Positions 593 through 20,142 of a stretch of 64,000 bases of DNA are shown here, in pieces (the stretch's first letter is position 1; the number at the start of each line of letters is the position of its first letter). The DNA is from Escherichia coli (GTDB lineage Bacteria > Pseudomonadota > Gammaproteobacteria > Enterobacterales > Enterobacteriaceae), in the NCBI RefSeq assembly GCF_030013205.1, contig NZ_CP122648.1, one strand, 5' to 3'. Made by a program: the position numbers and the translations under genes. The notes below the pieces were generated by a model. It did no database searches and was not told where the DNA came from. It saw only the letters and a list, made by a program, of their open reading frames with translations.

Positions 593-607
593 TCCGGCGT
601 TTCGGCA

Positions 608-1084: not shown

Positions 1085-1420
1085 AGGTTTCTCCTGTAAT
1101 AGCAGCCGGTTAAACCCGGCTACCTGAATGGGTTGCGAATCGCGTTCAGCTTATATTGTGGTCATTAGCAAAATTTCAAGATGTTTGCGCAACTATTTTT
1201 GGTAGTAATCCCAAAGCGGTGATCTATTTCACAAATTAATAATTAAGGGGTAAAAACCGACACTTAAAGTGATCCAGATTACGGTAGAAATCCTCAAGCA
1301 GCATATGATCTCGGGTATTCGGTCGATGCAGGGGATAATCGTCGGTCGAAAAACATTCGAAACCACATATATTCTGTGTGTTTAAAGCAAATCATTGGCA
1401 GCTTGAAAAAGAAGGTTCAC

Positions 1421-2857: not shown

Positions 2858-2878
2858 TCGTACAGGGTAGTACAAATA

Positions 2879-2910
2879 AAAAAGGCACGTCAGATGACGT
2901 GCCTTTTTTC
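2879..2910 (+). terminator. rho-independent terminator after aspA
   Basis: GC hairpin ggcacgtc/gacgtgcc followed by T6. Confidence 0.6.
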
Positions 2911-2974
2911 TTGTGAGCAGTAACTTAAAAATAACAATCTAATATCAACTTGTTAAAAAACAAGGAAGGCTAAT

Positions 2975-4276
2975 ATGCTAGTTGTAGAACTCATCATAGT
3001 TTTGCTGGCGATCTTCTTGGGCGCCAGATTGGGGGGAATAGGTATTGGTTTTGCAGGCGGATTGGGGGTGCTGGTTCTTGCCGCTATTGGCGTTAAACCC
3101 GGTAACATCCCGTTCGATGTCATTTCCATTATCATGGCGGTTATCGCCGCTATTTCTGCCATGCAGGTTGCTGGCGGTCTGGACTATCTGGTTCATCAGA
3201 CAGAAAAGCTGCTGCGCCGTAACCCGAAATACATCACGATCCTCGCACCGATCGTGACCTATTTCCTGACTATCTTTGCTGGTACTGGCAACATCTCTCT
3301 GGCGACACTGCCAGTTATCGCTGAAGTTGCGAAGGAACAAGGCGTTAAACCTTGCCGTCCGCTGTCTACTGCAGTGGTATCCGCGCAGATTGCGATCACC
3401 GCATCGCCAATCTCAGCGGCAGTGGTTTACATGTCTTCCGTAATGGAAGGTCATGGCATCAGCTACCTCCATCTGCTCTCCGTGGTCATCCCGTCCACCC
3501 TGCTGGCGGTTCTGGTGATGTCCTTCCTGGTCACTATGCTGTTCAACTCCAAACTCTCTGACGATCCGATTTATCGCAAGCGTCTGGAAGAAGGCCTGGT
3601 TGAACTGCGCGGTGAAAAGCAGATTGAAATCAAATCCGGTGCAAAAACGTCCGTCTGGCTGTTCCTGCTGGGCGTAGTTGGCGTTGTTATCTATGCAATC
3701 ATCAACAGCCCAAGCATGGGTCTGGTTGAAAAACCGCTGATGAACACCACCAACGCAATCCTGATCATCATGCTCAGCGTTGCAACTCTGACCACCGTTA
3801 TCTGTAAAGTCGATACCGACAACATCCTCAACTCCAGCACCTTCAAAGCAGGTATGAGCGCCTGTATTTGTATCCTGGGTGTTGCATGGCTGGGCGATAC
3901 TTTCGTTTCCAACAACATCGACTGGATCAAAGATACCGCTGGTGAAGTGATTCAGGGTCATCCGTGGCTGCTGGCCGTCATCTTCTTCTTTGCTTCTGCT
4001 CTGCTGTACTCTCAGGCTGCAACCGCAAAAGCACTGATGCCGATGGCTCTGGCACTGAACGTTTCTCCGCTGACCGCTGTTGCTTCTTTCGCTGCGGTGT
4101 CTGGTCTGTTCATTCTGCCGACCTACCCGACGCTGGTTGCTGCGGTACAGATGGATGACACGGGTACTACCCGTATCGGTAAATTCGTCTTCAACCATCC
4201 GTTCTTCATCCCGGGTACTCTGGGTGTTGCCCTTGCCGTTTGCTTCGGCTTCGTGCTGGGTAGCTTCATGCTGTAA
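2975..4276 (+). CDS. dcuA: anaerobic C4-dicarboxylate transporter DcuA
   Basis: 433-aa polytopic membrane protein, paralogous to the DcuB ORF at 52105. Confidence 0.95.
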   Translation: MLVVELIIVLLAIFLGARLGGIGIGFAGGLGVLVLAAIGVKPGNIPFDVISIIMAVIAAISAMQVAGGLDYLVHQTEKLLRRNPKYITILAPIVTYFLTIFAGTGNISLATLPVIAEVAKEQGVKPCRPLSTAVVSAQIAITASPISAAVVYMSSVMEGHGISYLHLLSVVIPSTLLAVLVMSFLVTMLFNSKLSDDPIYRKRLEEGLVELRGEKQIEIKSGAKTSVWLFLLGVVGVVIYAIINSPSMGLVEKPLMNTTNAILIIMLSVATLTTVICKVDTDNILNSSTFKAGMSACICILGVAWLGDTFVSNNIDWIKDTAGEVIQGHPWLLAVIFFFASALLYSQAATAKALMPMALALNVSPLTAVASFAAVSGLFILPTYPTLVAAVQMDDTGTTRIGKFVFNHPFFIPGTLGVALAVCFGFVLGSFML

Positions 4277-6438: not shown

Positions 6439-7014
6439 GTGCAACGTGAAGATGTACTGGGAGAAGCCCTGAAATTATTAGAATTACAAGGGATTGCCAA
6501 CACCACGCTGGAGATGGTTGCTGAACGTGTGGATTATCCACTGGACGAGCTACGCCGCTTCTGGCCAGACAAAGAGGCAATCCTCTACGATGCGCTGCGT
6601 TATCTTAGCCAACAGATAGATGTCTGGCGTCGTCAGCTGATGCTGGACGAAACGCAAACCGCCGAACAAAAGTTGCTGGCACGTTATCAGGCGTTATCGG
6701 AGTGCGTTAAAAACAACCGCTATCCGGGCTGTCTGTTTATCGCTGCCTGTACGTTTTATCCCGATCCTGGCCACCCTATTCATCAACTGGCCGATCAGCA
6801 AAAAAGCGCGGCCTACGATTTCACCCACGAACTGTTAACCACACTGGAAGTTGACGATCCGGCGATGGTAGCAAAGCAGATGGAACTGGTGCTGGAAGGC
6901 TGTTTAAGCCGAATGCTGGTGAATCGTAGCCAGGCGGATGTCGACACCGCACATCGGCTGGCGGAAGATATCCTGCGCTTCGCCCGCTGCCGCCAGGGTG
7001 GTGCTTTGACCTGA
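6439..7014 (+). CDS. yjdC: TetR-family transcriptional regulator YjdC
   Basis: 191 aa from GTG 6439 with SD ggagg; N-terminal HTH. Confidence 0.85.
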
Positions 7015-7120
7015 CAGAAACACAGAAAAGAAGCGATTTGCCGCAATCTTAAGCAGTTGAATCGCTTTTACTGAAATTAGGTTGACGAGATGTGCAGATT
7101 ACGGTTTAATGCGCCCCGTT

Positions 7121-7196
7121 GCCCGGATAGCTCAGTCGGTAGAGCAGGGGATTGAAAATCCCCGTGTCCTTGGTTCGATTCCGAGTCCGGGCACCA
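7121..7196 (+). tRNA. pheU: tRNA-Phe (anticodon GAA)
   Basis: 76-nt cloverleaf sequence GCCCGGATAGCTCAGTCGGTAGAGCAGGGGATTGAAAATCCCC...CCA; anticodon loop TTGAAAA. Confidence 0.95.
7174..7196 (+). repeat. attL core (3' end of pheU), duplicated at 38277-38298
   Basis: 23 nt ttcgattccgagtccgggcacca; 22 of these recur (one G fewer) at 38277. Confidence 0.75.
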
Positions 7197-7208
7197 AATT
7201 CATATCAA

Positions 7209-7236
7209 CGGACCTCCACGGAGGTCCGTTTTTCGT
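7209..7236 (+). terminator. terminator hairpin downstream of pheU
   Basis: ggacctcc-acg-gaggtcc followed by T5. Confidence 0.6.
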
Positions 7237-7393
7237 TTCAGAACACCATGATTTAAGTGTTCTTCCTCCAAATCAATTCTACCGAACTCAACCAAATTCT
7301 CCCCACATCAACCTCATTGTGTGGGTATAATTGCGGGTATACCCCAGTTCGACAGAATTTATACCCTCTTTAACGCATTCAGAAGGCTGAACT

Positions 7394-8656
7394 ATGGCAC
7401 TGACTGACGCAAAAATCCGGGCTGCAAAGCCCACTGACAAGGCTTATAAACTCACTGACGGGGCCGGCATGTTCCTGCTGGTTCATCCTAATGGTTCCCG
7501 TTACTGGCGTCTCCGCTATCGTATTCTGGGTAAGGAGAAGACTCTGGCACTTGGTGTGTATCCAGAAGTTTCTCTCTCCGAAGCTCGTACAAAACGGGAT
7601 GAGGCCCGAAAACTGATTTCAGAGGGGATTGACCCTTGCGAACAGAAAAGAGCTAAAAAAGTTGTCCCTGATTTACAGCTCTCTTTTGAACATATTGCAC
7701 GACGCTGGCATGCCAGTAATAAACAATGGGCACAATCACACAGCGATAAAGTACTCAAAAGCCTCGAGACACACGTTTTCCCCTTTATCGGCAACCGGGA
7801 TATCACAACACTCAGTACCCCGGACCTGCTTATCCCTGTTCGTGCTGCAGAAGCTAAACAAATTTATGAAATCGCCAGTCGTCTGCAGCAAAGAATATCT
7901 GCTGTAATGCGTTATGCCGTACAGTCTGGCATCATCAGATATAACCCGGCTCTGGATATGGCTGGTGCATTGACCACGGTAAAACGCCAGCATCGCCCTG
8001 CACTGGATCTTTCACGCCTGCCTGAACTTCTGTCGCGTATTGACGGTTATAAAGGCCAGCCTGTCACCCGACTGGCAGTTATGCTGAATTTACTGGTTTT
8101 TATTCGTTCCAGTGAACTCAGATACGCCCGCTGGTCTGAAATTGATATTGACAATGCCATGTGGACTATTCCAGCCGAACGCGAACCTCTGCCTGGCGTA
8201 AAATTCTCACACCGGGGCTCCAAGATGCGAACACCACATCTTGTGCCACTCAGCAAACAGGCTGTAGCCATACTGGCAGAACTACAGACATGGGCTGGTG
8301 AAAATGGTCTGATCTTTACGGGAGCACATGACCCGCATAAACCAATCAGTGAAAATACTGTAAATAAAGCCCTGAGGGTGATGGGGTATGACACAACCCA
8401 GGATGTCTGTGGCCATGGATTCCGTGCGATGGCATGTAGTGCGCTGATCGAATCAGGTTTGTGGTCCCGCGATGCTGTTGAACGTCAGATGAGCCATCAG
8501 GAACGTAACGGTGTACGCGCTGCGTATATCCATAAAGCCGAACATCTGGAAGAACGCCGGCTGATGCTACAGTGGTGGGCAGATTTTCTGAATGCGAACA
8601 GAGAGAAATGTATCAGTCCGTTTGATTATGCAAAGATCAACAATCCATTAAAATAG
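7394..8656 (+). CDS. int: P4-type tyrosine integrase
   Basis: 420 aa directly downstream of tRNA-Phe; N-terminal MALTDAKIRAAKP... and C-terminal HGFRAMA...RAAY tyrosine-recombinase signature. Confidence 0.9.
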   Translation: MALTDAKIRAAKPTDKAYKLTDGAGMFLLVHPNGSRYWRLRYRILGKEKTLALGVYPEVSLSEARTKRDEARKLISEGIDPCEQKRAKKVVPDLQLSFEHIARRWHASNKQWAQSHSDKVLKSLETHVFPFIGNRDITTLSTPDLLIPVRAAEAKQIYEIASRLQQRISAVMRYAVQSGIIRYNPALDMAGALTTVKRQHRPALDLSRLPELLSRIDGYKGQPVTRLAVMLNLLVFIRSSELRYARWSEIDIDNAMWTIPAEREPLPGVKFSHRGSKMRTPHLVPLSKQAVAILAELQTWAGENGLIFTGAHDPHKPISENTVNKALRVMGYDTTQDVCGHGFRAMACSALIESGLWSRDAVERQMSHQERNGVRAAYIHKAEHLEERRLMLQWWADFLNANREKCISPFDYAKINNPLK

Positions 8657-8819
8657 TAATAATCCCCGGGCAAAATGCCCGGGGTACTTTGAATGACTAT
8701 TTTTCTTTGGGCGTGATGAAGAAGATTGATGGTAAGACAAATTACTCCCGACTCTTACGTATTTTCATGGAAAGAAATCCCCCAATATCATCCATCGGGA
8801 TCGAGTAATAACCTGTAAT

Positions 8820-9005
8820 ATGCTGCAGGTTCCGACAGCGGCGGCAAATATGCAGCACATATTGTGCTCACTGATCGGCACCTGCCGTCTGAACAATGCG
8901 GAGTCAGAAAAATTGCTGCATTACGTCACAGATCATATGCAGGACTGGTCGGCAAACCGGGTACGCGATCTGTTGCCCTGGAAAGTTGATCTGACCTCTC
9001 AGTAA
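8820..9005 (+). pseudogene. IS66-family transposase C-terminal fragment
   Basis: 61-aa ORF ...LIGTCRLN...LLPWKVDL matches the C-terminus of the larger IS66-like fragment at 9730-10251. Confidence 0.5.
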
Positions 9006-9069
9006 ATATCAATACGGTTCTGGCGAGCCGCTTACAATCGAACTGGGATACAGGGAGATAAAACAGACG

Positions 9070-9429
9070 ATGCAACTGAGCAGGCTGACGCTGAGAAGTA
9101 AAAAGCCGGAGCTTGTGGAGCAAGAGCTGTGGGGTGTCTTACTGGCTTATAATCTGGTGAGATATCAGATGATTAAAATGGCGGAACATCTGAAAGGTTA
9201 CTGGCCGAATCAACTGAGTTTCTCAGAATCATGCGGAATGGTGATGAGAATGCTGATGACATTGCAGGGCGCTTCACCGGGACATATACCGGAGCTGATG
9301 CGCGATCTTGCAAGTATGGGACAACTTGTGAAATTACCGACAATAAGGGAAAGGGCCTTCCCGAGAGTGGTAAAGGAGAGGCCCTGGAAATACCCCACAG
9401 CCCCGAAAAAGAGCCAGTCAGTTGCTTAA
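9070..9429 (+). pseudogene. DDE transposase C-terminal fragment (IS4-like)
   Basis: 119-aa truncated ORF resembling a DDE transposase C-terminal region; no N-terminal catalytic part. Confidence 0.4.
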
Positions 9430-9753
9430 CTGACTGGCATTAGGCCGCCGGGGGCGTTTTTTTACCACCGGGACTTCGGACATAACGGTGTTTTCAGTAA
9501 GTACGACAGGTACTGTGGAGGCACTCCCGTAAAGACGGGCATCAAGTTCCCGCTCCGACATACCTGCGGGCAGAGGCCATGAAAGGCCAGCTTTTCGGAA
9601 GCGCACGAACATACCACAAACTGTTGATTTTGGTACGCCCAGGCGACGTCCGGCCACAATCCGTGGTAAATGTTCTTCAAAGTGAAGACGTAAAGCTTCA
9701 GTGATCCAGGTCCGGTATTCCATACGATAGTGTCCATTAAAAATGATGGACAT
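9418..9753 (-). pseudogene. transposase N-terminal HTH fragment (family uncertain)
   Basis: 111-aa ORF with HTH-like segment (RRLGVPKSTV), embedded among IS debris. Confidence 0.3.
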
Positions 9754-10251
9754 TATTTTTGTGGAGCCGGAGGAAACACACCAGACTGTTTAAATGAGCC
9801 GGTTACCGAAATACGCGGGTTGCCGGTGTCTGAACGCCTGGCGGTCAGGCAAATGCAGAGTAAACCGCTACTGACTTCCCTGTATAAGCTGATGCAGGAG
9901 AAAGAACACACATTATCGAAAAAATGCCGTCTGAGAGATGCGTTCCGGTATATCCGGAAGCACTGGGTTGCGTTGTGCAACTTCTGTGATGATGGTCTGG
10001 CGGAGGCGGATAATAATGCCGCGGAAAGAGCGCTTCGTGCAGTCTGTCTCGGAAAGAAAAACTTTATGTTCTTCGGCAGCGATCACGGCGGCGAGCGAGG
10101 AGCACTGTTGTACGGGCTGATCGGCACCTGCCGACTGAACGGTATCGATCCGGAAGCGTATCTGCGCCATATCCTGAGCGTACTGCCGGAATGGCCTTCC
10201 AACCGAGTTGACGAACTCCTGCCATGGAACGTAGTACTCACCAATAAATAA
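9730..10251 (+). pseudogene. IS66-family transposase (TnpC) C-terminal fragment
   Basis: 173-aa ORF ending ...GIDPEAYLRHILSVLPEWPSNRVDELLPWN; gtaagcg-type end motif about 40 bp downstream. Confidence 0.6.
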
Positions 10252-10385
10252 GCGTCAATACGGCACTCCGTTAACGCTTACGTTTAAGTCATAAAGCCAT
10301 GCAGAACGCTCACCTCCCAAGATCTTGGTTTTTATAAGGTGTAATGATAATGTAAGCTAATGTTTCACATGCCAAAGGAAACACC

Positions 10386-11714
10386 ATGAGCCACAGGGAA
10401 TTGTTCAGCGAATTTCTTGAAAATTTGAATCTTGACCTCAAACAGGCAAAAAAGATCAGCTATCACTATCGAAAAATAACCAAGTCATTAAATCTTGCGT
10501 TCAGAGGAACGAGTTCCCGGGTAGCAAACCGCTTGAAAGTGGGGTCAGTAGGCAGACATACCGCAATAAAAGGCATATCCGATCTGGATATGCTTTATAT
10601 TATGCCCCCCAATCAGTATGAATATTATAACCGTAAGGATAATGGTCAGTCTGCATTGCTTACAGATGTCAGAAACATTCTGGCGGAAGAATATCCTGAC
10701 CAGACTGTGAAAAAGGACAGACTGGTTGTTCAGATCATCTTTAAAAACTTTTATGTCGAGGTTCAACCTGTATTCAGACAGGATGATGACAGCTTTAAAT
10801 TCCCTGAAAGCTATAATGGAGGAGCATGGCGCATTACAAAACCTCTTCACGAAAAGGCGGCCATGACCGCATTTTCGCGAGATAAATCCAATAATCTGCG
10901 CAAGCTGTGTAAAATGATCAGAGCCTGGAAGAACCTGCATGGCGTCAATATGGGTGGCTTACTGATAGACACACTAGCGTATCGCTTTCTTTCATCAACA
11001 TCAGATTATGACAATACCGGAAATGGCAGCCTGGGAGCCCTCGCCAGAGACTTTTTTGAATATCTGTCAAATGAGGAGAGAAAGGAAAGGTATCTCGCGT
11101 TAGGCAGTAATCAGCATGTACGTGTTAAATCTCCCTGGTTTGGCCGGGCAGCGAAACACGCGTATGAATTATGTTGTGATGCCTTAGACGCTGAGGGGGC
11201 TGCCAGTGAAAATGACCGCTGGCGCAAAGTGTTCGGACGAGCCTTCCCCAGACGTAAAGTGGGTATTATGGAAGCCCGTCTTGGTCTGGAATCGCATGCG
11301 GCAGATGCTGTTCCCTGGACCGATACCGAAGAGTTTATAGAGGATAAATATCCGGTGGATATCAGGTACTCACTCAACCTTGACTGTACCGTAACCCAGG
11401 ATGGTTTCCCTCCCAGAAGCCTGAGGGAGATGCTTACCAGAAGATTCCGCCTCTCCGCTCGAAAATCTCTCCTTTTCCGGGCAGACTTGACAGAAATGGA
11501 GGCAGAGGAACCCTACACCGTTATGTGGAAGGTACTGAACGTGGGTGACGAAGCACGCAGAAGAAATATGATCCGGGGACAAATCGTTTCGGACGGCGGC
11601 TACTGTACGAAGAAAGAAACTACCGACTTCCGCGGAGATCACATGGTAGAATGCTATGTGATAAAAAATGAGGTTGTGGTTGCCCGGGCCCAGATTGAAG
11701 TTCCCATAAGCTGA
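10386..11714 (+). CDS. Pol-beta-fold nucleotidyltransferase with C-terminal extension (SMODS/CD-NTase-like plus AGS-C-like region)
   Basis: ATG with SD aaagga; GS-x10-SDLD nucleotidyltransferase signature (VGSVGRHTAIKGISDLD); about 150-aa C-terminal extension; AT-rich gene. Confidence 0.6.
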   Translation: MSHRELFSEFLENLNLDLKQAKKISYHYRKITKSLNLAFRGTSSRVANRLKVGSVGRHTAIKGISDLDMLYIMPPNQYEYYNRKDNGQSALLTDVRNILAEEYPDQTVKKDRLVVQIIFKNFYVEVQPVFRQDDDSFKFPESYNGGAWRITKPLHEKAAMTAFSRDKSNNLRKLCKMIRAWKNLHGVNMGGLLIDTLAYRFLSSTSDYDNTGNGSLGALARDFFEYLSNEERKERYLALGSNQHVRVKSPWFGRAAKHAYELCCDALDAEGAASENDRWRKVFGRAFPRRKVGIMEARLGLESHAADAVPWTDTEEFIEDKYPVDIRYSLNLDCTVTQDGFPPRSLREMLTRRFRLSARKSLLFRADLTEMEAEEPYTVMWKVLNVGDEARRRNMIRGQIVSDGGYCTKKETTDFRGDHMVECYVIKNEVVVARAQIEVPIS

Positions 11715-11721
11715 GGTTTTT

Positions 11722-12297
11722 ATGACGCAATCAGAGATGCTGAAATTAATCGCCCGACATGGTTATAACGTTGGATTTGGCGCTAAGAAAAACTTTGCCA
11801 CCTATGATCTGATTTGTAAGGCATCCGGTTGGATTAGCTTTATTTCTCTTGCTGTCGGTGTGTTCGCCCTTTTTATTCCTGAGCTGGCCACAAACGTCAT
11901 TTCCGCGATATTAATTATATTTGGTGTTGCTACAATGTACATTCAGTTTTATGACTCGGAAAAGCAGAGTTATGAAAGTGCGGGGATTGAGCAGACCAAA
12001 ATTTTTAATGAACTTGAAGTCATCTACCGCAACGTAAAAAGCGATGCAAACTTTGACTATCAGCGTACACAACAATCCATCGACGCTATCATGTCCCGGT
12101 TTTACGGCACGGTCATCAGCAAACAGATCTTCGGAAGTAACTGGTACGCACATTATAAATTTTACTGTGAATTTGAAAAAGCATGGGTTGAAGAAGAGCT
12201 GAACCTGACACTGAAGGACAAAATCCCGCTTTCGCTCTGCTTTCTCGCCGGTCTGGCGATCATTTTTACTATAGCTGTCATCTGGAAAACGCCCTGA
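11722..12297 (+). CDS. small multi-TM membrane protein (SLATT-like predicted effector)
   Basis: 191 aa, starts 8 nt after the nucleotidyltransferase stop with SD gagg; two adjacent N-proximal hydrophobic helices and one C-terminal helix. Confidence 0.55.
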   Translation: MTQSEMLKLIARHGYNVGFGAKKNFATYDLICKASGWISFISLAVGVFALFIPELATNVISAILIIFGVATMYIQFYDSEKQSYESAGIEQTKIFNELEVIYRNVKSDANFDYQRTQQSIDAIMSRFYGTVISKQIFGSNWYAHYKFYCEFEKAWVEEELNLTLKDKIPLSLCFLAGLAIIFTIAVIWKTP

Positions 12298-12848
12298 TGC
12301 TGCAGCCAATGAAAAATTCAGCAAGCTGACTGTCAAATATGCGATGTATAGCCGGTATCACCATCCAGTGTACGTTCTATAAGGGGGGCGCTTGGAAAAC
12401 GGGTAGAGTCAAGATGTGGCGCGGTAATTTTACAGGTCAGGCATATCTGTTGCCGCCTCTTTCGATTGGCGGTGCCTTACTGTCCTGACCATAAATCCTG
12501 TTTCCACACCCCGCTCATCGAAGCGGACATGCGCTTCTAACACATCCGGCTCTCGGACAGAATCATGCCTTCGCCCACGGAAACCTCTGCGGGAGCTTCG
12601 GTGCATATTTTCATGGAAGGGGATCACCCAATAACTTCCATCGAGATCGGGTCATAACGGCCAATCCGTGATCGAATAGAGCGGAATACGCACTCTGACG
12701 AACTGCTTACATTTAAACTAATTACAAACTATATAAATCCGCCTTGCTCATTCACAGGGTAGATATATTCTTACTTTTAATTTTATGTGTAATTAACTGA
12801 TGACGAAAAATGAATTGAACTGTAAATGCATATCTAAGTTTTTCATTC

Positions 12849-13574
12849 TTATGATGTACATAATACCTTAAAATTATCAACTAGCTGAGCATTAACCTCC
12901 ATCTGACTAATCCCCCATAATGCGGCTAACTGTTTCTCTGCAATCCCACTATCCCATGGCATTAGTGGGTCATTACGAAACTTAGCAAATGGCCCATCTG
13001 TTTCTGTAAGAATGCGTGATTTGGGTATTTTCAAAACTAAGGCCTTACCCTTTATTGTATCGAGCATAGCAGGCCCCACTGAGAACCAGCATCCTAAATC
13101 AATTGCCCTTTCAAGCTGCTTAGGTGTTCCAGTGAACCAATGCAATATTGCCACCCCATCGATATTTTCAATCTCATCAAGCACCGCTGATGCACTTCCC
13201 CGACTATGGATAGTCATAATCTTGCCACCAGCCCGATTTACACTGTTGAGAATGTGTCGGAACACTTTCAATTGAATATCCCAATGTTCTTTAAATCCCT
13301 GTCCACCATCAAGCCCTATTTCCCCTACATACTTAGTTTCCGAAAGCAATGAATCAAACAGGTCTAACTCATGCGATCTTTGATGCGCGATTTGAGGATG
13401 TAGCCCAAGAGCAGTTCGGATTCGTTGACTTTCTTTAGCCAATAAAGAAGTACCATGCCATGCTTTAGGTGTTGTTGTCACCGACAGAATATAAGTCCCT
13501 CGACGTTTACTTTCTTCAGCCACGAGGTCTGGCCGAGGATATAAGTCTAGATGACAGTGCATATCGATGCTCAT
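12849..13574 (-). CDS. qatD: TatD-family metal-dependent DNase (QatD)
   Basis: 241 aa; N-terminal HxH metal motif (MSIDMHCHLDLYP); start ATG overlaps qatC stop (ATGA). Confidence 0.8.
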   Translation of the reverse strand: MSIDMHCHLDLYPRPDLVAEESKRRGTYILSVTTTPKAWHGTSLLAKESQRIRTALGLHPQIAHQRSHELDLFDSLLSETKYVGEIGLDGGQGFKEHWDIQLKVFRHILNSVNRAGGKIMTIHSRGSASAVLDEIENIDGVAILHWFTGTPKQLERAIDLGCWFSVGPAMLDTIKGKALVLKIPKSRILTETDGPFAKFRNDPLMPWDSGIAEKQLAALWGISQMEVNAQLVDNFKVLCTS

Positions 13575-14890
13575 ACTATGTTCTCACTCAGTAAATAGCT
13601 TTCAACCTCATCCAGGCCATCCTTAAATACTTGCTTGAAATTATCAAATTCTGCCGTAGGCAAAGGGCCACTTTTGGCAATCCATGTACCTATTTTCAAA
13701 GTCGATTTCTGCGTGATCGCAATCCTAAGGGCGATCAGGTCGTCCCTGCGATCTATTTCATTCATTACTTTAGCTAAGGACTGGAAAATATATTCAACAT
13801 CTCTACTAATTCCCCCTGCATGAAGTGATGCTCGTCGAATGATACACGGTATACATACCCCACATTGCTGCCCCATTCGTTTCCAATGACTGCAGGATAC
13901 TGTACTTTCCACAATTTTAGATAAGAGCTGCTTATTTGAACATTCGGAGATCATTTTTCCTTTTGTCTTAAACTGATATGGATTGATTATTTGACAAGAA
14001 ATACCGAGCGCATCAAAGATCTTTTGTATGCTCGTAATAAAATGTGGATGTGTTGTTCGTGTGCTCAGCGAACCTATCCGCCGTGGAGTAAGTGGTGCAT
14101 TTAATGAGATAAATCCATTTTCAGGTACGAACAAATCAATCTTTTCTTGTTGAGATATCTCTTGTACGGCACAAGCACCTACGGCCGCAAAGGCAAGAAA
14201 ATTGAGGCTACGAGTTCGCATCGTAATATCAGTCACGCCTTGATAAATGTGTGGGTCAGCATTAATCTCAAAGCGCGAAAATTGGCCACTTAATTTTTCA
14301 GCAATCTGATCTTGACGAGACTTATCCCCCTTATAAGCATGACTAACCAAAAGTGGAGCGCGCCCTGCAGCCAGAAGATCTATTGCACCAATAGCTGAAT
14401 CCAGACCTCCTGAAAATAGGCTGACACAGTCAAGCCCTTTTAGCTTAATCAGACGATGCCTTGAATGCTGGCTATAAGGCTCTGGCGGTGCATAACCATC
14501 GTCACAAAATTCGAAATCCCAGATGTCTCCACTAAGAAAATGCAAAGCACTCTCAAGTTCTTTCTTTAGACTAATCCATCTGGATGGTTCATGAAGGGGG
14601 AGTCGTAACGACAATTGGCGGGTCCAACCATCCTCGGAACTTTCACGCTGAACGAAAGTATCTGCTGCAGTTACTGCTAATGCAACACTCAGAAAATCCA
14701 TGACCTTAGCTGGAAGCTGTACTCCCAAACGTCTGATCCGATCAATCGCAGGATTCCCGATAACAGATATATCTCCGCGCCTCTGACCACTTAATCCATA
14801 TAGCTGAACAGGTAACACTTTCTCACTTGCTGGCGGCAAATGGTGATGTTTATGATGGAAAACTAATTGTGTCACTGGTATGCCTCCCAT
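13571..14890 (-). CDS. qatC: QueC-like PP-loop ATPase (QatC)
   Basis: 439 aa; PP-loop SGGLDS; C-terminal Cys cluster CSHW...CGVCIPC as in QueC. Confidence 0.8.
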   Translation of the reverse strand: MGGIPVTQLVFHHKHHHLPPASEKVLPVQLYGLSGQRRGDISVIGNPAIDRIRRLGVQLPAKVMDFLSVALAVTAADTFVQRESSEDGWTRQLSLRLPLHEPSRWISLKKELESALHFLSGDIWDFEFCDDGYAPPEPYSQHSRHRLIKLKGLDCVSLFSGGLDSAIGAIDLLAAGRAPLLVSHAYKGDKSRQDQIAEKLSGQFSRFEINADPHIYQGVTDITMRTRSLNFLAFAAVGACAVQEISQQEKIDLFVPENGFISLNAPLTPRRIGSLSTRTTHPHFITSIQKIFDALGISCQIINPYQFKTKGKMISECSNKQLLSKIVESTVSCSHWKRMGQQCGVCIPCIIRRASLHAGGISRDVEYIFQSLAKVMNEIDRRDDLIALRIAITQKSTLKIGTWIAKSGPLPTAEFDNFKQVFKDGLDEVESYLLSENIV

Positions 14891-15624
14891 TCTTGCCAGG
14901 CCTCAATAATGGCCTGACGTTCAATTTTTACCATTTGGTTTCGTGTGAACGATCTTATGTTACCGGCAAGTTTTGGTGCCATATGTTTATCAACAACAAC
15001 TTTAATCAATTCCCGGAGTTCAATTTCTGCATGAATTGCCTTTGAAGGTGTATCTGCTTTGTTCCATGCCCTATTAGAATCCATTACCATCTGAAGGAAA
15101 ATACTTTCCGCTAGATAACCAATCATTGTGTCAACAATCACACCATCAGTTATTTTTTGAGGATCGAAAATTTCTACGCCATCAAGAGCCTCCACTAAAG
15201 CATGGTTCATGGCCGCACAGATCTTTTCTGAGTCACCATCCTGTGATGTTAAAGCTTGAGCAATAGTTGATATTGCTATTTCGCATGGAAGGCCTGCCAA
15301 ACTGCCCAAATCGATGCTTGGTTCTCCGGGAGCCGAAGGCATTCCCACTAAAGCCCCAAATAATTCGGCCCCAGCTTGCGTGACACTCCCTAATCGCCGA
15401 GCAGCGTTACTGCTCCCTCCGGAGGCTTTTCGCGCGTAGTGCCCTATGGCTTTTCTGAAATCTGCTCGATTTCCATTTGATACCGCATTTCCCAACGATT
15501 CTCGAAATGGCGCAAACCTCCTTTCTTGCGGCGAGGGTAACGGTTGCTGTGGCTGATCATCAGCCCATGGTGGAACCAGCGGAGAGCCACCTCCTGGACC
15601 TTTACTTGATTGTGATGTTCCCAT
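14872..15624 (-). CDS. qatB: QatB (function unknown)
   Basis: 250 aa Gly/Pro-rich protein between the KAP ATPase and QueC-like genes; start overlaps qatA stop by 1 nt, 3' end overlaps qatC by 19 nt. Confidence 0.65.
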   Translation of the reverse strand: MGTSQSSKGPGGGSPLVPPWADDQPQQPLPSPQERRFAPFRESLGNAVSNGNRADFRKAIGHYARKASGGSSNAARRLGSVTQAGAELFGALVGMPSAPGEPSIDLGSLAGLPCEIAISTIAQALTSQDGDSEKICAAMNHALVEALDGVEIFDPQKITDGVIVDTMIGYLAESIFLQMVMDSNRAWNKADTPSKAIHAEIELRELIKVVVDKHMAPKLAGNIRSFTRNQMVKIERQAIIEAWQEWEAYQ

Positions 15625-17408
15625 TAAGCGTCCTTATTCCATTGTTCATCTTTTAATGCTGCAGTCATCCACGCTGGTCGTTTCATCCCCAACTGTAATT
15701 CCTGTAGATAACGAATTAATATGCTGGCTGCATCTGTTGAGTAGCGGGCCAACAGACATGCGCCGGAAAAGCCTCTGGGCTTACGATCCCAATCTGATAC
15801 CTGCCGTAACTGGTTAATTAAACCTTCCATTACAGGTATTTGCTCCTCACGAGGAAGTGCTTTCAAAAGGTTTTCTGCTGTAGGAGAACTAGTGTTTTTC
15901 AATTCAATTAGTGCATTTAGTACTTCCCGTCCAGATGGCGATAAACCAACCACATATGCACCTATTGGCATAGTTTCTCGGGACAGATATATGGCGGCCC
16001 TTAAGTCAATCCCACCAAGACGAGGTTCAAGTTGGGCCCATTGACTGATGAAAGATTTAGTCGTTGGACTATCAGTCCATGTCTTTGGTGCATCAGTAGG
16101 TATTTGACCGCCATTATCGTCAAGCTGTTTAAGTATCTGGGGAACACCTTGTTCAATATCCACGAGATGATATAAATCAGCGGTGCCATCCACTCCAACA
16201 CAGCGTTCAAAAATTACTAGCTTAGTAATAATTGCTTCATCCAAAGGCATTGCTCGTCGCTTCGCAATTTGAGATCGCATTTTCACAACATTCAACAAGC
16301 GTTTAACGATCCTGGGATTACCATGAATAATTGGAGAGTTGGCTAAAATGGGAGCAATACGGTCAGCACGCGCAAACGCCAGCGCGAGGTTGCTATCATC
16401 CGCTTCACCAGTCATTTTTAAGGCCTCCTGACGTGAGATTGGTTCATCTTTCCAGGATTGCTGTAACGCCTTCTCTAAGCCCTCACGGAGCATAGTTATT
16501 TTTTCGCCTTCTAAGCCATGTTCAATGGCATAAAGCATGAACAGATACGAACGGATCTCACGGACCCCAGCCTTAGGCACCCGAATAGGAACCTGGATTA
16601 GCTTATCCAGATAATCTATTTGATGGCGCTGTGATGCCCCTTTGAAGTAATCAGCCACAGAAGAGCGAATCATGTCCTCATCTGCTGCAATAATAAAGGC
16701 TGTATTAGTCAAGAAAAGGAATAGCCTGATAGCTTCAAGTGTATGGATAGCATTGGCAGGGAGACAGCGGTCTAGGTTATCTATTACCACAATGAGTGGC
16801 TTTCCAAGTTCTTCTAGAATTTCCCCATATTCCTTACGAAAGGCATCAATCTGCTGAGGGGGGCTTTTTTTTGTTTGTGGTTTAATCAAACCACAAGCAG
16901 TTTCTTTACCTTCTTTAGCTATATTGCCTAAAGCCTCATACTCTTCCTGACTCTGGATGCCATCGGTGATATTTCTTAATGCACCAATCCCCCTAGAAAG
17001 CAAACCGCCAGTAGGTAATCCTGCCATTAAAGCTGTACCCTCAGCTAGTAATCCCATAGCTCTAAAACCATCAACTCGACTAAGGAGTCTCTTAGTTTTT
17101 GATATAAGGGTAGAATTACCTTCAGCAGCTTTTGTCAATTCTGTAGCGATGACTTCAAGAAGTGCGGCACGGGCGTCGTCGTACCCCTGATAGAGCCAAG
17201 AGTCAAAATTGATAACAATCCAATCTTTGTCGTCTTGCTCAAGTTTTTGCTCTATCAGTTTTAACAGAGAGGATTTACCTGCCCCCCAGTTTCCAAAAAT
17301 TCCGATAGATACTGGTAACATATCTTTCGTGGTAAGTACATCCACGGCTAACTGAGATACTTCACCAAAATTTAGGTAGTCTTCTGATGACTCTTTGTCT
17401 GACCACAT
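15624..17408 (-). CDS. qatA: KAP-family P-loop NTPase (QatA)
   Basis: 594 aa; Walker A GNWGAGKSS near N-terminus. Confidence 0.8.
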   Translation of the reverse strand: MWSDKESSEDYLNFGEVSQLAVDVLTTKDMLPVSIGIFGNWGAGKSSLLKLIEQKLEQDDKDWIVINFDSWLYQGYDDARAALLEVIATELTKAAEGNSTLISKTKRLLSRVDGFRAMGLLAEGTALMAGLPTGGLLSRGIGALRNITDGIQSQEEYEALGNIAKEGKETACGLIKPQTKKSPPQQIDAFRKEYGEILEELGKPLIVVIDNLDRCLPANAIHTLEAIRLFLFLTNTAFIIAADEDMIRSSVADYFKGASQRHQIDYLDKLIQVPIRVPKAGVREIRSYLFMLYAIEHGLEGEKITMLREGLEKALQQSWKDEPISRQEALKMTGEADDSNLALAFARADRIAPILANSPIIHGNPRIVKRLLNVVKMRSQIAKRRAMPLDEAIITKLVIFERCVGVDGTADLYHLVDIEQGVPQILKQLDDNGGQIPTDAPKTWTDSPTTKSFISQWAQLEPRLGGIDLRAAIYLSRETMPIGAYVVGLSPSGREVLNALIELKNTSSPTAENLLKALPREEQIPVMEGLINQLRQVSDWDRKPRGFSGACLLARYSTDAASILIRYLQELQLGMKRPAWMTAALKDEQWNKDA

Positions 17409-17539
17409 TTTTATATCCTTTACATCACCAATTTTTACGTCATTGAGTAAACTACAGGTTTGATAAAACCAACTCTGTTCAGGTGGGCAAATTCAGTGTA
17501 CCACTTCATCAATAATCCAATATGATGACTGCTATAGAT

Positions 17540-18742
17540 CTATTTTTTAAAGAATGAAATAAGCTTTCTTATCCCAGTCCATATTTTCCTATCAGAATCC
17601 GAAGGGTTAAATTCGCTCTTGTCAAAATCAGCAACCTCAGCAACCTCAGCAACCTCAGCAACCTCAGCAACCTCAGCAACCTCAGCAACCTCAGCAACCT
17701 CAGCAACCTCAGCAACCTCAGCAACCTCAGCAACCTCAGCAACCTCAGCAACCTCAGCAAGGTTTATTCTATTTTGATGAGCTGTCAAATGTTCTTTGTT
17801 AATTTCATCTCTAATTAGCTGTTCTTTTTCTATGCTGTAGTTTTTGTCATTATAAGTCACATCAAAATCATCTAAGAAAACGATATAAATCAATTTAAAA
17901 AAACTAGTCTTAAATAAAAAACTATCGCACTCATCAGGAAAACCAAAAAAGAAAACATTAAGATATTTGGTTGCTTTGCGCTTGTCTTTTAGTCCATTAT
18001 AATACTTATTTGCTTCTGCTCTTTGTTTTTCATACTCACTACAGAAAAAACTCTTTTTACTTTCATCCCATTCTGAAGCATCAATTTCAAGTTTATATGC
18101 TTGTTTGGTACCTTTCTTTCTGGCTAAAAAAGTAAGGTAATATCTATTCGAATTTATCTCCAGCCGTATATTAGATTGAATTTTACCAAAATAAATTGCT
18201 GGCTTATTATATCTAATTCCTTCTTTATAGATGATTAGTTGAAAAGTATCTTTATAAGTTCTAACTCCATAAGGGGGAATTGATAATGGTTCATAGAGAT
18301 TATCTCCATTAATGTAGTAGTCTACTACCGGTTTGATGCTTGAAGATGACACAGGGTGTACTTTACCTCCCAAATCTTTTTCATCATCTCGCGTCTGTTT
18401 GATAATTCTTCTGCCAGAAGAGTCGTAATTTCTTTCAGACACATCAAGTTTCAGAAGAGATATAGCTAATGCCGGTGGTGAATTATGCTTTTTATTATTC
18501 TTTGAGTTACACTTATTTTTACTCTTAGGATCATGAATCTTACATCCCGGCCTATGAGTCTCTTTATATCGAAAGTATGATTGATTTAAATTTATTTCTT
18601 TGAAGCTACATGGAGTAGCGGGTATCCTACATTTGTCATACGGGCATTCAAAAGTGGTTGTTCGTATATAAAGATCATCCATTTCCCGAAGATCATGACC
18701 ATGAACAATTTCACCACTAACAGAATCTCTTGCTATTGTCAC
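17540..18742 (-). CDS. hypothetical protein with N-terminal Cys cluster and C-terminal (Ala-Glu-Val)n repeat
   Basis: 400 aa; GTG start preceded by perfect SD AAGGAG at 5-nt spacing; C33/C38/C45/C67 with flanking His; AT-rich; co-directional with qatA 131 bp downstream. Confidence 0.6.
   Translation of the reverse strand: MTIARDSVSGEIVHGHDLREMDDLYIRTTTFECPYDKCRIPATPCSFKEINLNQSYFRYKETHRPGCKIHDPKSKNKCNSKNNKKHNSPPALAISLLKLDVSERNYDSSGRRIIKQTRDDEKDLGGKVHPVSSSSIKPVVDYYINGDNLYEPLSIPPYGVRTYKDTFQLIIYKEGIRYNKPAIYFGKIQSNIRLEINSNRYYLTFLARKKGTKQAYKLEIDASEWDESKKSFFCSEYEKQRAEANKYYNGLKDKRKATKYLNVFFFGFPDECDSFLFKTSFFKLIYIVFLDDFDVTYNDKNYSIEKEQLIRDEINKEHLTAHQNRINLAEVAEVAEVAEVAEVAEVAEVAEVAEVAEVAEVAEVAEVAEVADFDKSEFNPSDSDRKIWTGIRKLISFFKK
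17628..17760. repeat. perfect 9-bp tandem repeat (gcaacctca), about 14.8 copies, in-frame within the 400-aa CDS
   Basis: Direct reading of sequence; encodes the AEV repeat on the minus strand. Confidence 0.97.
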
Positions 18743-18980
18743 ACAATCTCCTTTGATAAAAATTAATAGATTCTAATTTCATACCAAGGCTAATTTAAAT
18801 AAAGGCTATTTAAGAGAAAAACAAGTCAGCCTGACAGACATATCCCCTCCCATGGCAATATGCCGCTATTTCGCGTTTTTTTTCACGCCATAATGCGTTT
18901 CAAGGTAGCGAATATCTTCGATTGCCCATGGTGTGCGCATTCTTTTGGGTTTATTTTCCATTACCATGTTTTATCAGCCA

Positions 18981-19190
18981 TCATGGCAGCCTCTCCGGTT
19001 TGCCAGCGTGTTCCACCTGATAACGATTAATCAGCTGATTCAGTGCCATTTCAGCCTGTTTTTGCTGCTGTTCACTGCCATTCTGGTTACGGGCTTCATC
19101 ATAGCGACGTAACTGCTCTTCCGCCGGGATATGCCGGTTAAAAGCCTGCATGATGCCAAACACCTCTGTTTTCAGTTCACTGACCGTCAT
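18981..19190 (-). CDS. small hypothetical protein
   Basis: 69 aa from internal ATG with SD gggga (track ORF 84 aa); Gln/Glu-rich helical sequence. Confidence 0.4.
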   Translation of the reverse strand: MTVSELKTEVFGIMQAFNRHIPAEEQLRRYDEARNQNGSEQQQKQAEMALNQLINRYQVEHAGKPERLP

Positions 19191-19950
19191 GTATTTTCCC
19201 CGCTGTTCATCCAGACGGTTCAGGCGCTCAGCCATCCGCGGCCTGAAGAGATAAAGGCGATAATAAAACAGACATCAGTGTCAGTGACAGCAAGGACGGA
19301 CAGCGCCGGAATAAGCTTTGTTCCTCAGCCCTCACGTTCCTGCAACATAATTTTCCAGCCAAACGAAAAACCTTTTATTCATGCCATACCAATAATCGCC
19401 AGCCTCCTGGCGATGCCTCCCACCATGTTTTGCAGTGGTACGCTACCGCCCTTCCGGTATTTACCCGCATCAACCGGTACCAGAATGCTGAGTAACAAAC
19501 CAGCTCAGAACTGACTGAATTTTGATCATTATAGAATAATGATCTGAACTGCAGCAATATAACAGATTTATCGATCGATATAACGCAAATGAACAGATCT
19601 TTATTCTGTCATATATCGCAAAAACAGCACATTACAAAATTTATAACCATAATTAATGGAAAAGTGCAGAAAATTATTCCACTGAATGCTTTTAATACAG
19701 TTAGTTAGCTAAAAAAATAGCAATTTTTGATTTCAGTCATTGAAAATTGCAATGCGTGACGATTCAACAGCATTTAAGTGAGTTTCAGGATATGGGAAGG
19801 ACATGAAAGGAGGAGCGCAATAAAATATACAGGAAGAAGGGGAAAATGTTTCGTAAAAACAGAAAATTAACAGCGCACATCAGGAAACTCAGTCTCCTGA
19901 TTCAGTGCTACCACATGAAAATTTAGTTAACTGTTACCGTACTAAAATTT

Positions 19951-20142
19951 ATGTCAGAAGATGTTCCATTACCGAAAGTCAATCAGCGATACAAAGACGA
20001 TCATGGTGCGCTTGTCACCGTGACCAGTGTTGAGGAAACCCGGGTGGTGTTTATGCGGGACGGCTATCCGCATCCCTGCATGCGACCGATGTACAACTTT
20101 CTGGGAAAATTCAAACCCGAACCCCGGGAAGAAACAGAATAA
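19951..20142 (+). CDS. small island protein (DUF4222-like)
   Basis: 63-aa ORF MSEDVPLPKVNQRYKDDHG...; family assignment from memory. Confidence 0.4.
   Translation: MSEDVPLPKVNQRYKDDHGALVTVTSVEETRVVFMRDGYPHPCMRPMYNFLGKFKPEPREETE

Follow-up and report, generated by a model that had tools for sequence, protein, structure and literature searches.

A probable Type I CBASS anti-phage operon pairing an AGS-C-fused CD-NTase with a SLATT6 membrane protein in an Escherichia coli defence island

Two genes on a mobile cassette

The window considered here, a 64,000-nucleotide stretch of the Escherichia coli contig NZ_CP122648.1, carries two adjacent genes on the + strand at positions 10386-12297. The first (ORF1; 10386-11714, 442 aa) encodes a CD-NTase (SMODS) catalytic core (residues 1-290; 10386-11255), a variable linker (residues 291-312; 11256-11321) and a beta-rich, Ig-like AGS-C domain (residues 313-442), which together with the stop codon occupies 11322-11714. 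The second (ORF2; 11722-12297, 191 aa) encodes a SLATT_6 inner-membrane effector, identified by Pfam, NCBIfam and PADLOC searches, a hydropathy scan and an AlphaFold model. PADLOC labels the pair as a CBASS cyclase and a 2TM effector; the corresponding NCBI names, “nucleotide-binding domain-containing protein” and “SLATT domain-containing protein”, denote the cyclase and the effector, respectively.

The genes are preceded by a leader on the same strand (10282-10385) which, from plasmid homology and its own sequence, probably holds the promoter region and contains a ribosome-binding site, AAGGAA (10375-10380), 5 nt before the ORF1 ATG. A sigma-70 consensus scan of the + strand of this leader returned no strong or convincing site; read by eye, TTGGTT (10326-10331) and TAATGT (10348-10353), separated by a 16-nt spacer and accompanied by a TG at 10345-10346, may represent promoter elements. 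ORF1 terminates at a TGA codon (11712-11714), and a spacer of 7 nt (11715-11721) leads to the ORF2 ATG at 11722, in agreement with the sequence-only reading of this DNA, which had placed the second gene 8 nt after the stop of the first. A GAGG Shine-Dalgarno sequence (11713-11716) overlaps the ORF1 stop codon, which suggests translational coupling of the two genes. A scan of the downstream tail (12298-12396, + strand) found no terminator-like site, and the sole + strand terminator-like hairpin around the operon lies inside the SLATT6 coding region, in the segment of the third transmembrane helix.

The outer limits of this region are set by homology to the IncX1 plasmid p54, which extends over 10282-12396 only (96.6% identity) and ends with the tail. 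As this homology starts at 10282, 104 bp of upstream DNA belong to the cassette itself, and the restriction of the homology to these positions marks the cassette as a unit separate from the neighbouring genes. Of 5426 complete E. coli genomes, 271 contain it, with an identity over the region of at least 99% in 254 records. It also occurs on 63 plasmids of enterobacteria, of which 42 are conjugative, and the plasmid copies are about 97% identical. The 2.1-kb cassette travels in this way across the Enterobacteriaceae on conjugative IncX1-type plasmids. At least two alleles occur in E. coli, the main one and another (P0127) at 83% identity. Between chromosomal and plasmid alleles, the ratio of synonymous to non-synonymous substitutions is 23:16 in the cyclase and 15:4 in SLATT6, a pattern indicating that the cassette is under purifying selection; with thousands of homologues of the genes, this synonymous excess shows that both ORFs are real genes and not chance reading frames. 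An IS2 element interrupts the operon in two STEC strains, and an IS5 element does so on a Morganella plasmid.

On the chromosome, truncated transposase genes (IS4/IS66 fragments; 8825-10251) lie directly upstream of the cassette. A complete QatABCD system, with full-length PADLOC matches to QatA-D, adjoins it in convergent orientation, and this confirms the defence-island setting. The tRNA-Phe island is thus a stacked one, with Type I CBASS beside QatABCD. An Rfam scan of 7000-20000 found tRNA only, and a search allowing at most 3 mismatches for a directly repeated tRNA-Phe 3' end, which would place the island's other boundary, found none. A nearby QueC-like gene was considered as an indication of type IV CBASS and rejected: the gene is QatC, part of this complete QatABCD set, and stands beyond the limits of the mobile cassette. 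The annotation of p54 lists no QatC at distances of up to 4 kb from the cassette.

The association of the two genes is also retained in distant bacteria. SLATT_6 lies directly downstream of the cyclase in Brevundimonas, Acinetobacter, Vibrio, Methylomonas and one 6.8-Mb genome, and two further cyclases (P0157 and P0160), 53-55% identical to ORF1, have SLATT_4 as their downstream partner. A SLATT protein is therefore the partner in all seven relatives examined, with a spacer of 2-7 nt in six, and several of these seven loci sit among restriction-modification, Abi_2, TIR, BrxR or HipA genes. An hhalign comparison of the SLATT_6 and SLATT_4 partners, aimed at shared motifs that might define a common ligand site, revealed no detectable similarity (probability <2%). 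A search of phage genomes for close homologues of the cyclase was negative.

The CD-NTase and its AGS-C domain

ORF1 belongs to the CD-NTases, and its Pol-beta active site is intact. The Pfam SMODS family matches residues 1-161 (E 1.3e-39), and the PADLOC Cyclase profile PDLC00796 matches the protein over its full length (E 9.4e-177). Besides AGS_C, the sole further Pfam match is to the generic NTP_transf_2 family and is marginal (E 0.032); the AbiEii, KNTase and antibiotic nucleotidyltransferase families gave no Pfam match. Against the NCBIfam model CBASS_cyclase_b, ORF1 scores 100 bits, below the equivalog cut-off of 200, and is therefore not that particular equivalog. The fold assignment agrees with the profiles: in a Foldseek search with the AlphaFold model of ORF1, each of the 50 top-ranked PDB matches is a CD-NTase, the best being Pseudomonas aeruginosa CdnD (PaCdnD; 6p82; E 5e-13, TM 0.79-0.80, target-normalised). 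By sequence, PaCdnD is a weak match, and identity to the solved structures of clades A, B, C, D, E and G is 11-23%. The host species, the AGS-C fusion and the SLATT6 partner together suggest that ORF1 belongs to clade F (CdnF04/F05).

The nucleotidyltransferase motif consists of G53-S54 (10542-10547), followed after 10 residues by S65-D66-L67-D68, of which D66-x-D68 is encoded at 10581-10589. The third acidic residue is E125 (10758-10760), which aligns with the Asp of the ‘VDAVPAF’ segment in PaCdnD. None of the residues G53, S54, D66, D68 and E125 varies among 28 homologues, the most distant at 51% identity. The GS-x10-SDLD signature and the C-terminal extension of roughly 150 aa that had been noticed from sequence are thus both real, the extension resolving into a linker of about 22 aa (residues 291-312) and a 130-aa AGS_C domain (residues 313-442). 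The same reading had held that a profile match to a non-signalling nucleotidyltransferase family would overturn it; SMODS and AGS_C were assigned instead, with AbiEii and antibiotic nucleotidyltransferases unmatched.

The two parts of this extension differ markedly in conservation. Within the linker, pLDDT falls below 50 for residues 292-311, identity to homologues ranges over 5-59%, and column entropy is 2.37 versus 0.99 in the core. In the AGS-C domain column entropy is 1.21, conservation being near that of the core, and many residues are invariant (e.g. W381, K382, N385, R397, G398, H419, E422 and C423). The features that define an AGS-C domain are all present, namely a full-length match to PF18134 (residues 313-442, model positions 2-129 of 129, E 7.2e-45), a location at the C-terminus of a cyclase and a beta-sandwich fold, with seven predicted beta strands between residues 331 and 441 and block-mean pLDDT values mostly of 72-89. 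A hydropathy scan of ORF1 detected no segment as hydrophobic as the helices of ORF2.

The SLATT6 membrane protein

ORF2 is matched by Pfam SLATT_6 (PF18169), with 1-173 of 176 covered (E 5.6e-63), by NCBIfam SLATT_6 (NF033630; 223.8 bits, cut-off 100) and by the PADLOC Effector 2TM profile PDLC00695 (E 1.8e-82). The only other Pfam family above threshold is SLATT_5, and this match is weak (E 8e-4). Together with the Pfam SMODS and AGS_C matches of ORF1, these assignments bear out the SMODS/AGS-C and SLATT pairing proposed from the sequence.

The hydropathy scan delineates a cytosolic N-terminal helix (residues 1-33), TM1 (residues ~35-53; 11824-11880, + strand), TM2 (residues ~58-76; 11893-11949, + strand), a cytosolic helical region (residues 77-167) and a C-terminal TM3 (residues ~169-188; 12226-12285, + strand). 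The two adjacent hydrophobic helices and the C-terminal helix of the sequence-only reading, which had made the presence of predicted transmembrane helices a condition of its own validity, are thereby recovered. The net charge of +3 before TM1, the 6-residue loop between TM1 and TM2 (PELATN) and the ~90 residues after TM2 make this the likely topology, with the segments before TM1 and after TM2 facing the cytosol. The two-TM hairpin and the association with SMODS, here and in five relatives, are those of the SLATT superfamily, to which the C-terminal helix is an addition. The AlphaFold model is all-alpha, with a mean pLDDT of 89, and a search for a solved structural relative of SLATT6 found none.

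Two motifs are invariant in SLATT6, one spanning I10 to D29 (I10-A-x-x-G-Y-N-V-G-F-G-A-K-K-x-F-A-T-Y-D29) and the other S133 to F148 (S133-K-Q-I-F-G-S-N-W-Y-A-H-Y-K-F-F148). It had been stated earlier that the system has no receptor domain. This stands for named domains, none of which was found in ORF2 by the Pfam search; it does not extend to the protein as a whole, as the ~120 cytosolic residues, with their invariant aromatic and basic motifs, are the obvious candidate sensor.

The operon as Type I CBASS

Taken together, 10386-12297 is very probably a two-gene Type I CBASS anti-phage operon that acts by abortive infection. The effector expected of this type is present, a SLATT_6 gene on the same strand 7 nt past the cyclase stop, and 10282-12396 holds these two genes only, with none of the ancillary genes of type II (Cap2/Cap3), type III (HORMA/TRIP13) or type IV (QueC/TGT/OGG-like). 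The earlier description of the locus as “CBASS-like” was right as to CBASS, given the PADLOC cyclase and effector assignments, with the adjustment that the locus is no oddity but standard Type I CBASS. The class is already known and catalogued, and the operon is an ordinary two-gene system in an E. coli defence island, of a sub-type that has already been tested by experiment as EcCdnF04/05-SLATT6. For annotation, the consequence is a routine cbass_type_I call.

Cyclic-oligonucleotide synthesis that activates the effector would be expected of a CBASS, and a mechanism may be outlined from established CBASS and from the tests on closely related E. coli operons. In uninfected cells the cyclase would be inactive; a late-infection cue would switch it on, for which escape mutants of Type I systems point to virion-assembly proteins (e.g. 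the prohead protease/scaffold, the capsid or tail-fibre proteins), and the AGS-C domain would tune which phages are sensed. Once active, it would produce a cyclic oligonucleotide that binds the cytosolic face of SLATT6, likely in a predicted pocket formed by the motifs I10-D29 and S133-F148. Binding could then make SLATT6 oligomerise, or make its TM hairpin open as a pore, and the resulting collapse of membrane potential would kill the cell before phage progeny mature. The second-messenger step is drawn by analogy because clade F CD-NTases have no known product; in vitro synthesis has been observed for none of them (bioRxiv 10.1101/2023.05.21.541620). Likewise, pore formation or membrane disruption by SLATT proteins on activation is a prediction (bioRxiv 10.64898/2026.04.29.721553).

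A more specific proposal, possible if somewhat doubtful, is that the cytosolic motifs of SLATT6 (GYNVGFGAKK...FATYD, and SNWYAHYKF before TM3) form an undescribed all-helical receptor for the clade F cyclic oligonucleotide and gate a three-TM pore directly; the AGS-C domain, conserved rather than hypervariable, would in that case act as a fixed sensor for an intermediate of virion assembly. If true, this would define a new structural class among nucleotide-gated membrane effectors, one without a solved relative. The locus presents no new kind of system; it adds candidate residues for signal reading by a SLATT protein without a known receptor domain.

Other accounts of the two genes can be weighed against this evidence. 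That ORF1 is a non-signalling enzyme (AbiEii, an MNT-type toxin-antitoxin nucleotidyltransferase or an antibiotic nucleotidyltransferase), and the membrane protein an unrelated neighbour or toxin partner, might be argued from the GS...DxD motif, which is common to all Pol-beta nucleotidyltransferases, and from the marginal generic NTP_transf_2 match noted above. The probability of this is next to negligible, the profile and fold assignments having already refuted it: the SMODS, full-length AGS_C and CBASS cyclase matches, the want of any AbiEii or KNTase match, the uniformly CD-NTase structural matches and the SLATT gene directly downstream in every relative examined all stand against it. It is very unlikely, too, that the cyclase dispenses with a diffusible messenger and acts on SLATT6 by contact, for instance through AGS-C, or by nucleotidylylation. 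Direct action would account for the absent in vitro product of clade F and for a SLATT6 without a receptor domain, and the tight translational coupling of the genes is in keeping with it. However, Cap15 and Cap5 effectors, too, are found with AGS-C cyclases, so that AGS-C is not a SLATT-specific adaptor; cyclases ~53-55% identical to ORF1 use a SLATT_4 effector without detectable sequence similarity to SLATT_6, which a shared small-molecule signal fits more easily than a conserved protein interface; and the catalytic and substrate-binding core of the CD-NTase is conserved.

An inverted logic is conceivable as well, in which a constitutively made nucleotide keeps SLATT6 closed and its depletion by a phage sponge or nuclease opens the pore, as in Panoptes (PMC12657218). 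The layout of a synthase with a 2TM effector is superficially like that of Panoptes, but the Panoptes enzyme is a minimal CRISPR polymerase (PMC12657218), whereas ORF1 is a CD-NTase. Escape from Type I CBASS arises by mutation of virion-assembly proteins (bioRxiv 10.1101/2023.05.21.541620), and these escape mutants, including those with partial cross-resistance to the F04/05 operons, do not point to sponge loss; the inverted scheme is extremely improbable. In E. coli, 15 of 17 Type I operons were well tolerated, and both CdnF-SLATT6 operons went through the phage screen (bioRxiv 10.1101/2023.05.21.541620), a tolerance that fits the standard and inverted models alike. Finally, the cassette could be a silent or decaying remnant in the present strain, its regulation perhaps removed by the IS4/IS66 fragments. 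The truncated transposase genes directly upstream, the lack of a strong promoter in the scan and the IS2 and IS5 interruptions elsewhere speak for decay; against it, both ORFs are intact, identity of at least 99% is maintained among the 254 records, the 104-bp leader also carried by the plasmid copies is kept and the substitutions bear the mark of purifying selection, which makes it a highly unlikely account.

Several known systems share parts of this design. Pycsar (PycC and PycTM) likewise joins a nucleotide signal to a TM effector in two genes. PycC, a cyclic-mononucleotide cyclase, has a fold different from that of the CD-NTases, and ORF1, a SMODS/CD-NTase protein, differs from it accordingly. 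AGS-C is nonetheless also fused to some PycC enzymes (bioRxiv 10.1101/2023.05.21.541620). In DRT10 (UG17) with SLATT_5, a SLATT TM effector is likewise coupled to an enzyme that synthesises nucleic acid or nucleotides; unlike ORF1, that enzyme is a reverse transcriptase accompanied by an ncRNA, and its presumed signal is tandem-repeat cDNA (bioRxiv 10.64898/2026.04.29.721553).

Closer in kind are the other membrane effectors of CBASS. Type I systems with Cap15 (e.g. PspCdnB06-Cap15) likewise consist of a minimal cyclase, often AGS-C-fused, and a membrane effector, which kills by inner-membrane disruption. Cap15, a two-TM protein, senses its nucleotide by a C-terminal beta-barrel, whereas SLATT6 is all-alpha and without such a domain. 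Cap14 carries a SAVED receptor domain, whereas the Pfam search with SLATT6 gave no match to a named receptor domain. In Cap14-type CBASS the effector is likewise a membrane protein gated by a nucleotide, an ion channel that 2',3'-cGAMP activates and that restricts phage (PMC10402079). The Type I CBASS of the lactococcal plasmid pUCCL631 (PMC11381338) and loci L010 and L012 combine SLATT_4 with an NTase/AGS-C protein, and thus have the same cyclase architecture and an effector of the SLATT superfamily; the cyclases of L010 and L012 are 53-55% identical to ORF1, although their SLATT_4 effector has no detectable similarity to SLATT_6.

The nearest comparison is with EcCdnF04-SLATT6 and EcCdnF05-SLATT6, which share with the present operon the species, the two-gene layout, the CD-NTase-AGS-C fusion and the SLATT6 effector. 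A literature search that also covered the accessions WP_000019626 and WP_000194394 found the names CdnF04, CdnF05 and SLATT6 used only in the study by Richmond-Buccola et al. (bioRxiv 10.1101/2023.05.21.541620). There, the AGS-C fusion is common to the clade F04/05 operons, and operons with AGS-C gave wider protection against T1-like phages; EcCdnF04-SLATT6 restricted phages of all five families tested at least 10,000-fold, and EcCdnF05-SLATT6 also restricted the Bas04/Bas05 escape mutants (bioRxiv 10.1101/2023.05.21.541620). On this likeness of species and architecture, the operon described here may be one of the two tested operons or a close variant, and the phage protection that the literature shows for the E. 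coli CdnF04/05-SLATT6 operons would be expected of this allele as well.

The cyclase and its membrane partner

The locus is a Type I CBASS with a SLATT_6 effector, in which every testable defining feature was found: an intact CD-NTase, a conserved AGS-C domain and a membrane SLATT6 partner, all tightly coupled. The two plus-strand reading frames lie exactly where the sequence-only reading had placed them, with the cyclase gene (ORF1) at 10386-11714 (442 aa) and the effector gene (ORF2) at 11722-12297 (191 aa). ORF1 is preceded by a ribosome-binding site (AAGGAA, 5 nt upstream of the ATG) and closes with a TGA at 11712-11714, leaving a 7-nt spacer in keeping with the close succession noted earlier; the Shine-Dalgarno sequence of ORF2 (GAGG, 11713-11716) overlaps this stop codon.

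Residues 1-161 of ORF1 match Pfam SMODS (E 1.3e-39) and residues 313-442 cover the whole AGS_C model (E 7.2e-45), with generic NTP_transf_2 as the sole further, marginal Pfam match, and the PADLOC CBASS cyclase model PDLC00796 spans the protein end to end (E 9.4e-177). The Pol-beta motif recognised beforehand is present as G53-S54, followed after ten residues by S65-D66-L67-D68. A Kyte-Doolittle scan of the whole protein revealed no membrane-like segment. The AlphaFold model, derived from an alignment of 28 homologues (mean pLDDT 80.6), consists of a CD-NTase core, a disordered linker (292-311) and a seven-strand β domain. When this model was compared with the PDB using Foldseek, all 50 of the 50 best matches were bacterial CD-NTases, led by Pseudomonas aeruginosa CdnD (target-normalised TM-score 0.79-0.80; 21-23% identity), which is also the sole PDB match at the sequence level. 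Among homologues down to 51% identity, G53, S54, D66, D68 and E125 are invariant, the last aligning with the third catalytic Asp of CdnD (VEVQPVF vs VDAVPAF). Column entropy is 1.21 in AGS-C, 0.99 in the catalytic core and 2.37 in the linker. By this measure AGS-C is not hypervariable, its conservation being near that of the core, a pattern that favours a fixed ligand or interface over diversification of the antibody kind.

ORF2 is assigned to SLATT_6 by Pfam (E 5.6e-63) and NCBIfam (223.8 bits; cut-off 100), and matches the PADLOC "2TM" CBASS effector model (E 1.8e-82). The proposed membrane character was borne out by hydropathy, with two adjacent hydrophobic segments at approximately residues 35-53 and 58-76, connected through a PELATN loop, and a C-terminal third at 169-188. 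The confident, all-helical AlphaFold model (pLDDT 89) has a long N-terminal helix (3-49) that continues into TM1, and a TM2 that extends into a cytosolic helix (78-107), followed by three short helices and TM3. Given the net charge of +3 before TM1 and the six residues that separate TM1 from TM2, a cytosolic location is predicted for the N-terminus as well as for residues 77-167. It is in these predicted cytosolic parts that conservation is concentrated, with invariant residues near the N-terminus (I10, A11, Y15, G18, F19, G20, K23, F25, A26, T27, D29, K33) and after TM2 (K81, Y84, I136, S139, W141, Y142, A143, H144, Y145, K146, F147, W155, D166); in TM3, hydrophobicity alone is conserved. The resulting aromatic- and lysine-rich surface would resemble an expected nucleotide pocket. 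No resembling structure was found among solved structures. The family is small and uniform: clustering at 50% identity gives 244 groups among 1.84 billion representatives, and its complete members are mostly ~180-240 aa.

A mobile cassette and its genomic setting

The gene pair is one mobile unit. Of 5426 complete E. coli genomes, 271 contain the 2.1-kb CBASS region, which is at least 99% identical in 254 E. coli records and is also carried by 63 plasmids (42 conjugative, e.g., an IncX1 plasmid) from hosts that include Klebsiella, Salmonella and Escherichia. The chromosomal and plasmid copies are homologous between 10282 and 12396, so the cassette comprises the two genes with 104 bp of upstream and 99 bp of downstream sequence. 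The chromosomal and plasmid alleles differ by 23 synonymous and 16 non-synonymous codons in the cyclase, and by 15 and 4, respectively, in SLATT6; this excess of synonymous differences indicates that both genes are kept by purifying selection. On the IncX1 plasmid p54 (6119-8286), two HEPN-domain genes follow the cassette and a DinQ-like type I toxin gene precedes it, so that the same CBASS is here part of another small cluster of defence/addiction genes. An IS2 element interrupts the region in the E. coli STEC384 and STEC379 chromosomes, as does an IS5-family element on the Morganella plasmid NC_016036, which suggests occasional inactivation.

The pairing also extends to distant relatives. 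Seven cyclase homologues, ~52-55% identical and from unrelated bacteria (Brevundimonas, Acinetobacter, Vibrio vulnificus, Methylomonas, a 6.8-Mb genome, a Thiocystis-type contig and a Chitinophagaceae MAG), were examined for their downstream gene. A SLATT gene lies directly 3' on the same strand in all seven, separated by 2-7 nt in six and by 68 nt in one; the partner belongs to SLATT_6 at five loci and to SLATT_4 at the other two. Several are surrounded by restriction-modification, Abi_2, TIR, BrxR or HipA genes. In V. vulnificus (L006, L007 and L008; 4758-4991), a 77-aa DUF2188 gene ends 10 nt before the cyclase start and is kept in three different genomic contexts; it may represent a third component or a regulator, and the E. 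coli cassette does not carry it.

The window corresponds to the tRNA-Phe region of porcine ETEC strains, between dsbD/dicD and cadC. The tRNA-Phe gene (7121-7196) and an integrase (7394-8656) are followed by a patchwork of truncated transposases (IS4 family, IS66 TnpA and IS66 transposase fragments; 8820-10251), which ends 31 bp before the cassette homology begins at 10282. Convergent to the CBASS on the minus strand is a complete QatABCD system (12849-17408), with four full-length PADLOC matches: TatD-like QatD (12849-13574), QueC-like QatC (13571-14890), QatB (14872-15624; "hypothetical protein" in RefSeq) and QatA, a KAP NTPase (15624-17408; "KAP family P-loop NTPase fold protein" in RefSeq). 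A type IV CBASS involving the QueC-like neighbour was rejected, as this gene is QatC and lies outside the plasmid-shared cassette. The 450 bp between the cassette and qatD (12397-12848) hold no annotated gene and gave no match in an Rfam scan; a minus-strand 65-aa ORF lies there (12430-12627), whose translation includes HVRFDERGVETG.

Beyond Qat, a low-GC stretch (35-38%) encodes a 400-aa hypothetical protein (17540-18742, minus strand) containing a perfect 9-bp tandem repeat (17628-17760) that codes for (AEV)n, with 14.8 copies in the window, 21.8 in ETEC4079 and 20.8 in O157:H16 98-3133. Its sole PADLOC match is weak (PD-Lambda-4_B, E 1e-5), and its location beside Qat and CBASS hints at a further defence or phase-variable gene. 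Feature coordinates agree with the ETEC reference up to this array (17628), beyond which the reference is 63 bp longer. The right part of the island, before cadC, is a CP4-57-like module (YfjI, a GTPase, an Ag43/Cah autotransporter, an antirestriction protein, RadC, YeeU/CbtA toxin-antitoxin and DUF-family genes) at ~25.7-38.3 kb in ETEC4079 coordinates, which run ~63 bp ahead of the window there. The island is integrated at tRNA-Phe (relevant stretches 7121-8656 and ~38.3-39 kb); a search of the window for a direct repeat of the tRNA-Phe 3' end that would mark its right-hand boundary (three or fewer mismatches) found none. In O157:H16 98-3133, the same integrase-IS debris-CBASS-Qat block occupies the other tRNA-Phe gene, beside yqgA.

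Signalling logic and relation to tested systems

A late-infection cue would most likely switch on the cyclase, with AGS-C tuning specificity; the activated enzyme would then make a cyclic oligonucleotide that binds the cytosolic face of SLATT6, and the ligand-bound effector would permeabilise the inner membrane, aborting infection. That ORF1 is instead a non-signalling nucleotidyltransferase, an outcome against which the sequence-only reading had asked to be checked, is excluded by the SMODS and AGS_C profiles and by the fold. That the cyclase acts on SLATT6 directly, with no diffusible signal, is improbable: it would accord with the finding that no clade F enzyme had yielded an in vitro product (bioRxiv 10.1101/2023.05.21.541620), but it fits poorly with AGS-C cyclases also serving Cap15 and Cap5 effectors (bioRxiv 10.1101/2023.05.21.541620), and with related cyclases pairing with SLATT_4, which has no detectable sequence similarity to SLATT_6.

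An inverted logic like that of Panoptes is unlikely, since the enzyme is of a different class and the escape mutations fall in prohead protease/scaffold, capsid and tail-fibre proteins (bioRxiv 10.1101/2023.05.21.541620). It is likewise unlikely that the operon is a silent remnant: a scan around it detected no clear promoter and some strains carry IS insertions within it, but the reading frames are intact, the leader is retained and selection is purifying.

A signalling CBASS of this kind belongs to a class already known and recognised by PADLOC, NCBIfam and Pfam. Burroughs et al. (2015, as represented in citing papers) described the class by computational means, as SMODS/AGS-C paired with SLATT. 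The product, the AGS-C ligand and SLATT sensing are questions of the whole class rather than of this locus; for SLATT in DRT10, sensing has been called "a central open question" (bioRxiv 10.64898/2026.04.29.721553). The class has also been tested experimentally in E. coli, where gammaproteobacterial Type I operons were challenged with a large phage panel (bioRxiv 10.1101/2023.05.21.541620). ORF1 probably belongs to clade F, and the locus may be one of the EcCdnF04/F05 operons tested there or a close variant. In that study, the AGS-C fusion was common to clade F04/05 operons, AGS-C operons gave broader protection from T1-like phages, EcCdnF04-SLATT6 acted on phages from each of the five families, with restriction of 10,000-fold or more, and EcCdnF05-SLATT6 was active against the tested escape mutants as well (bioRxiv 10.1101/2023.05.21.541620).
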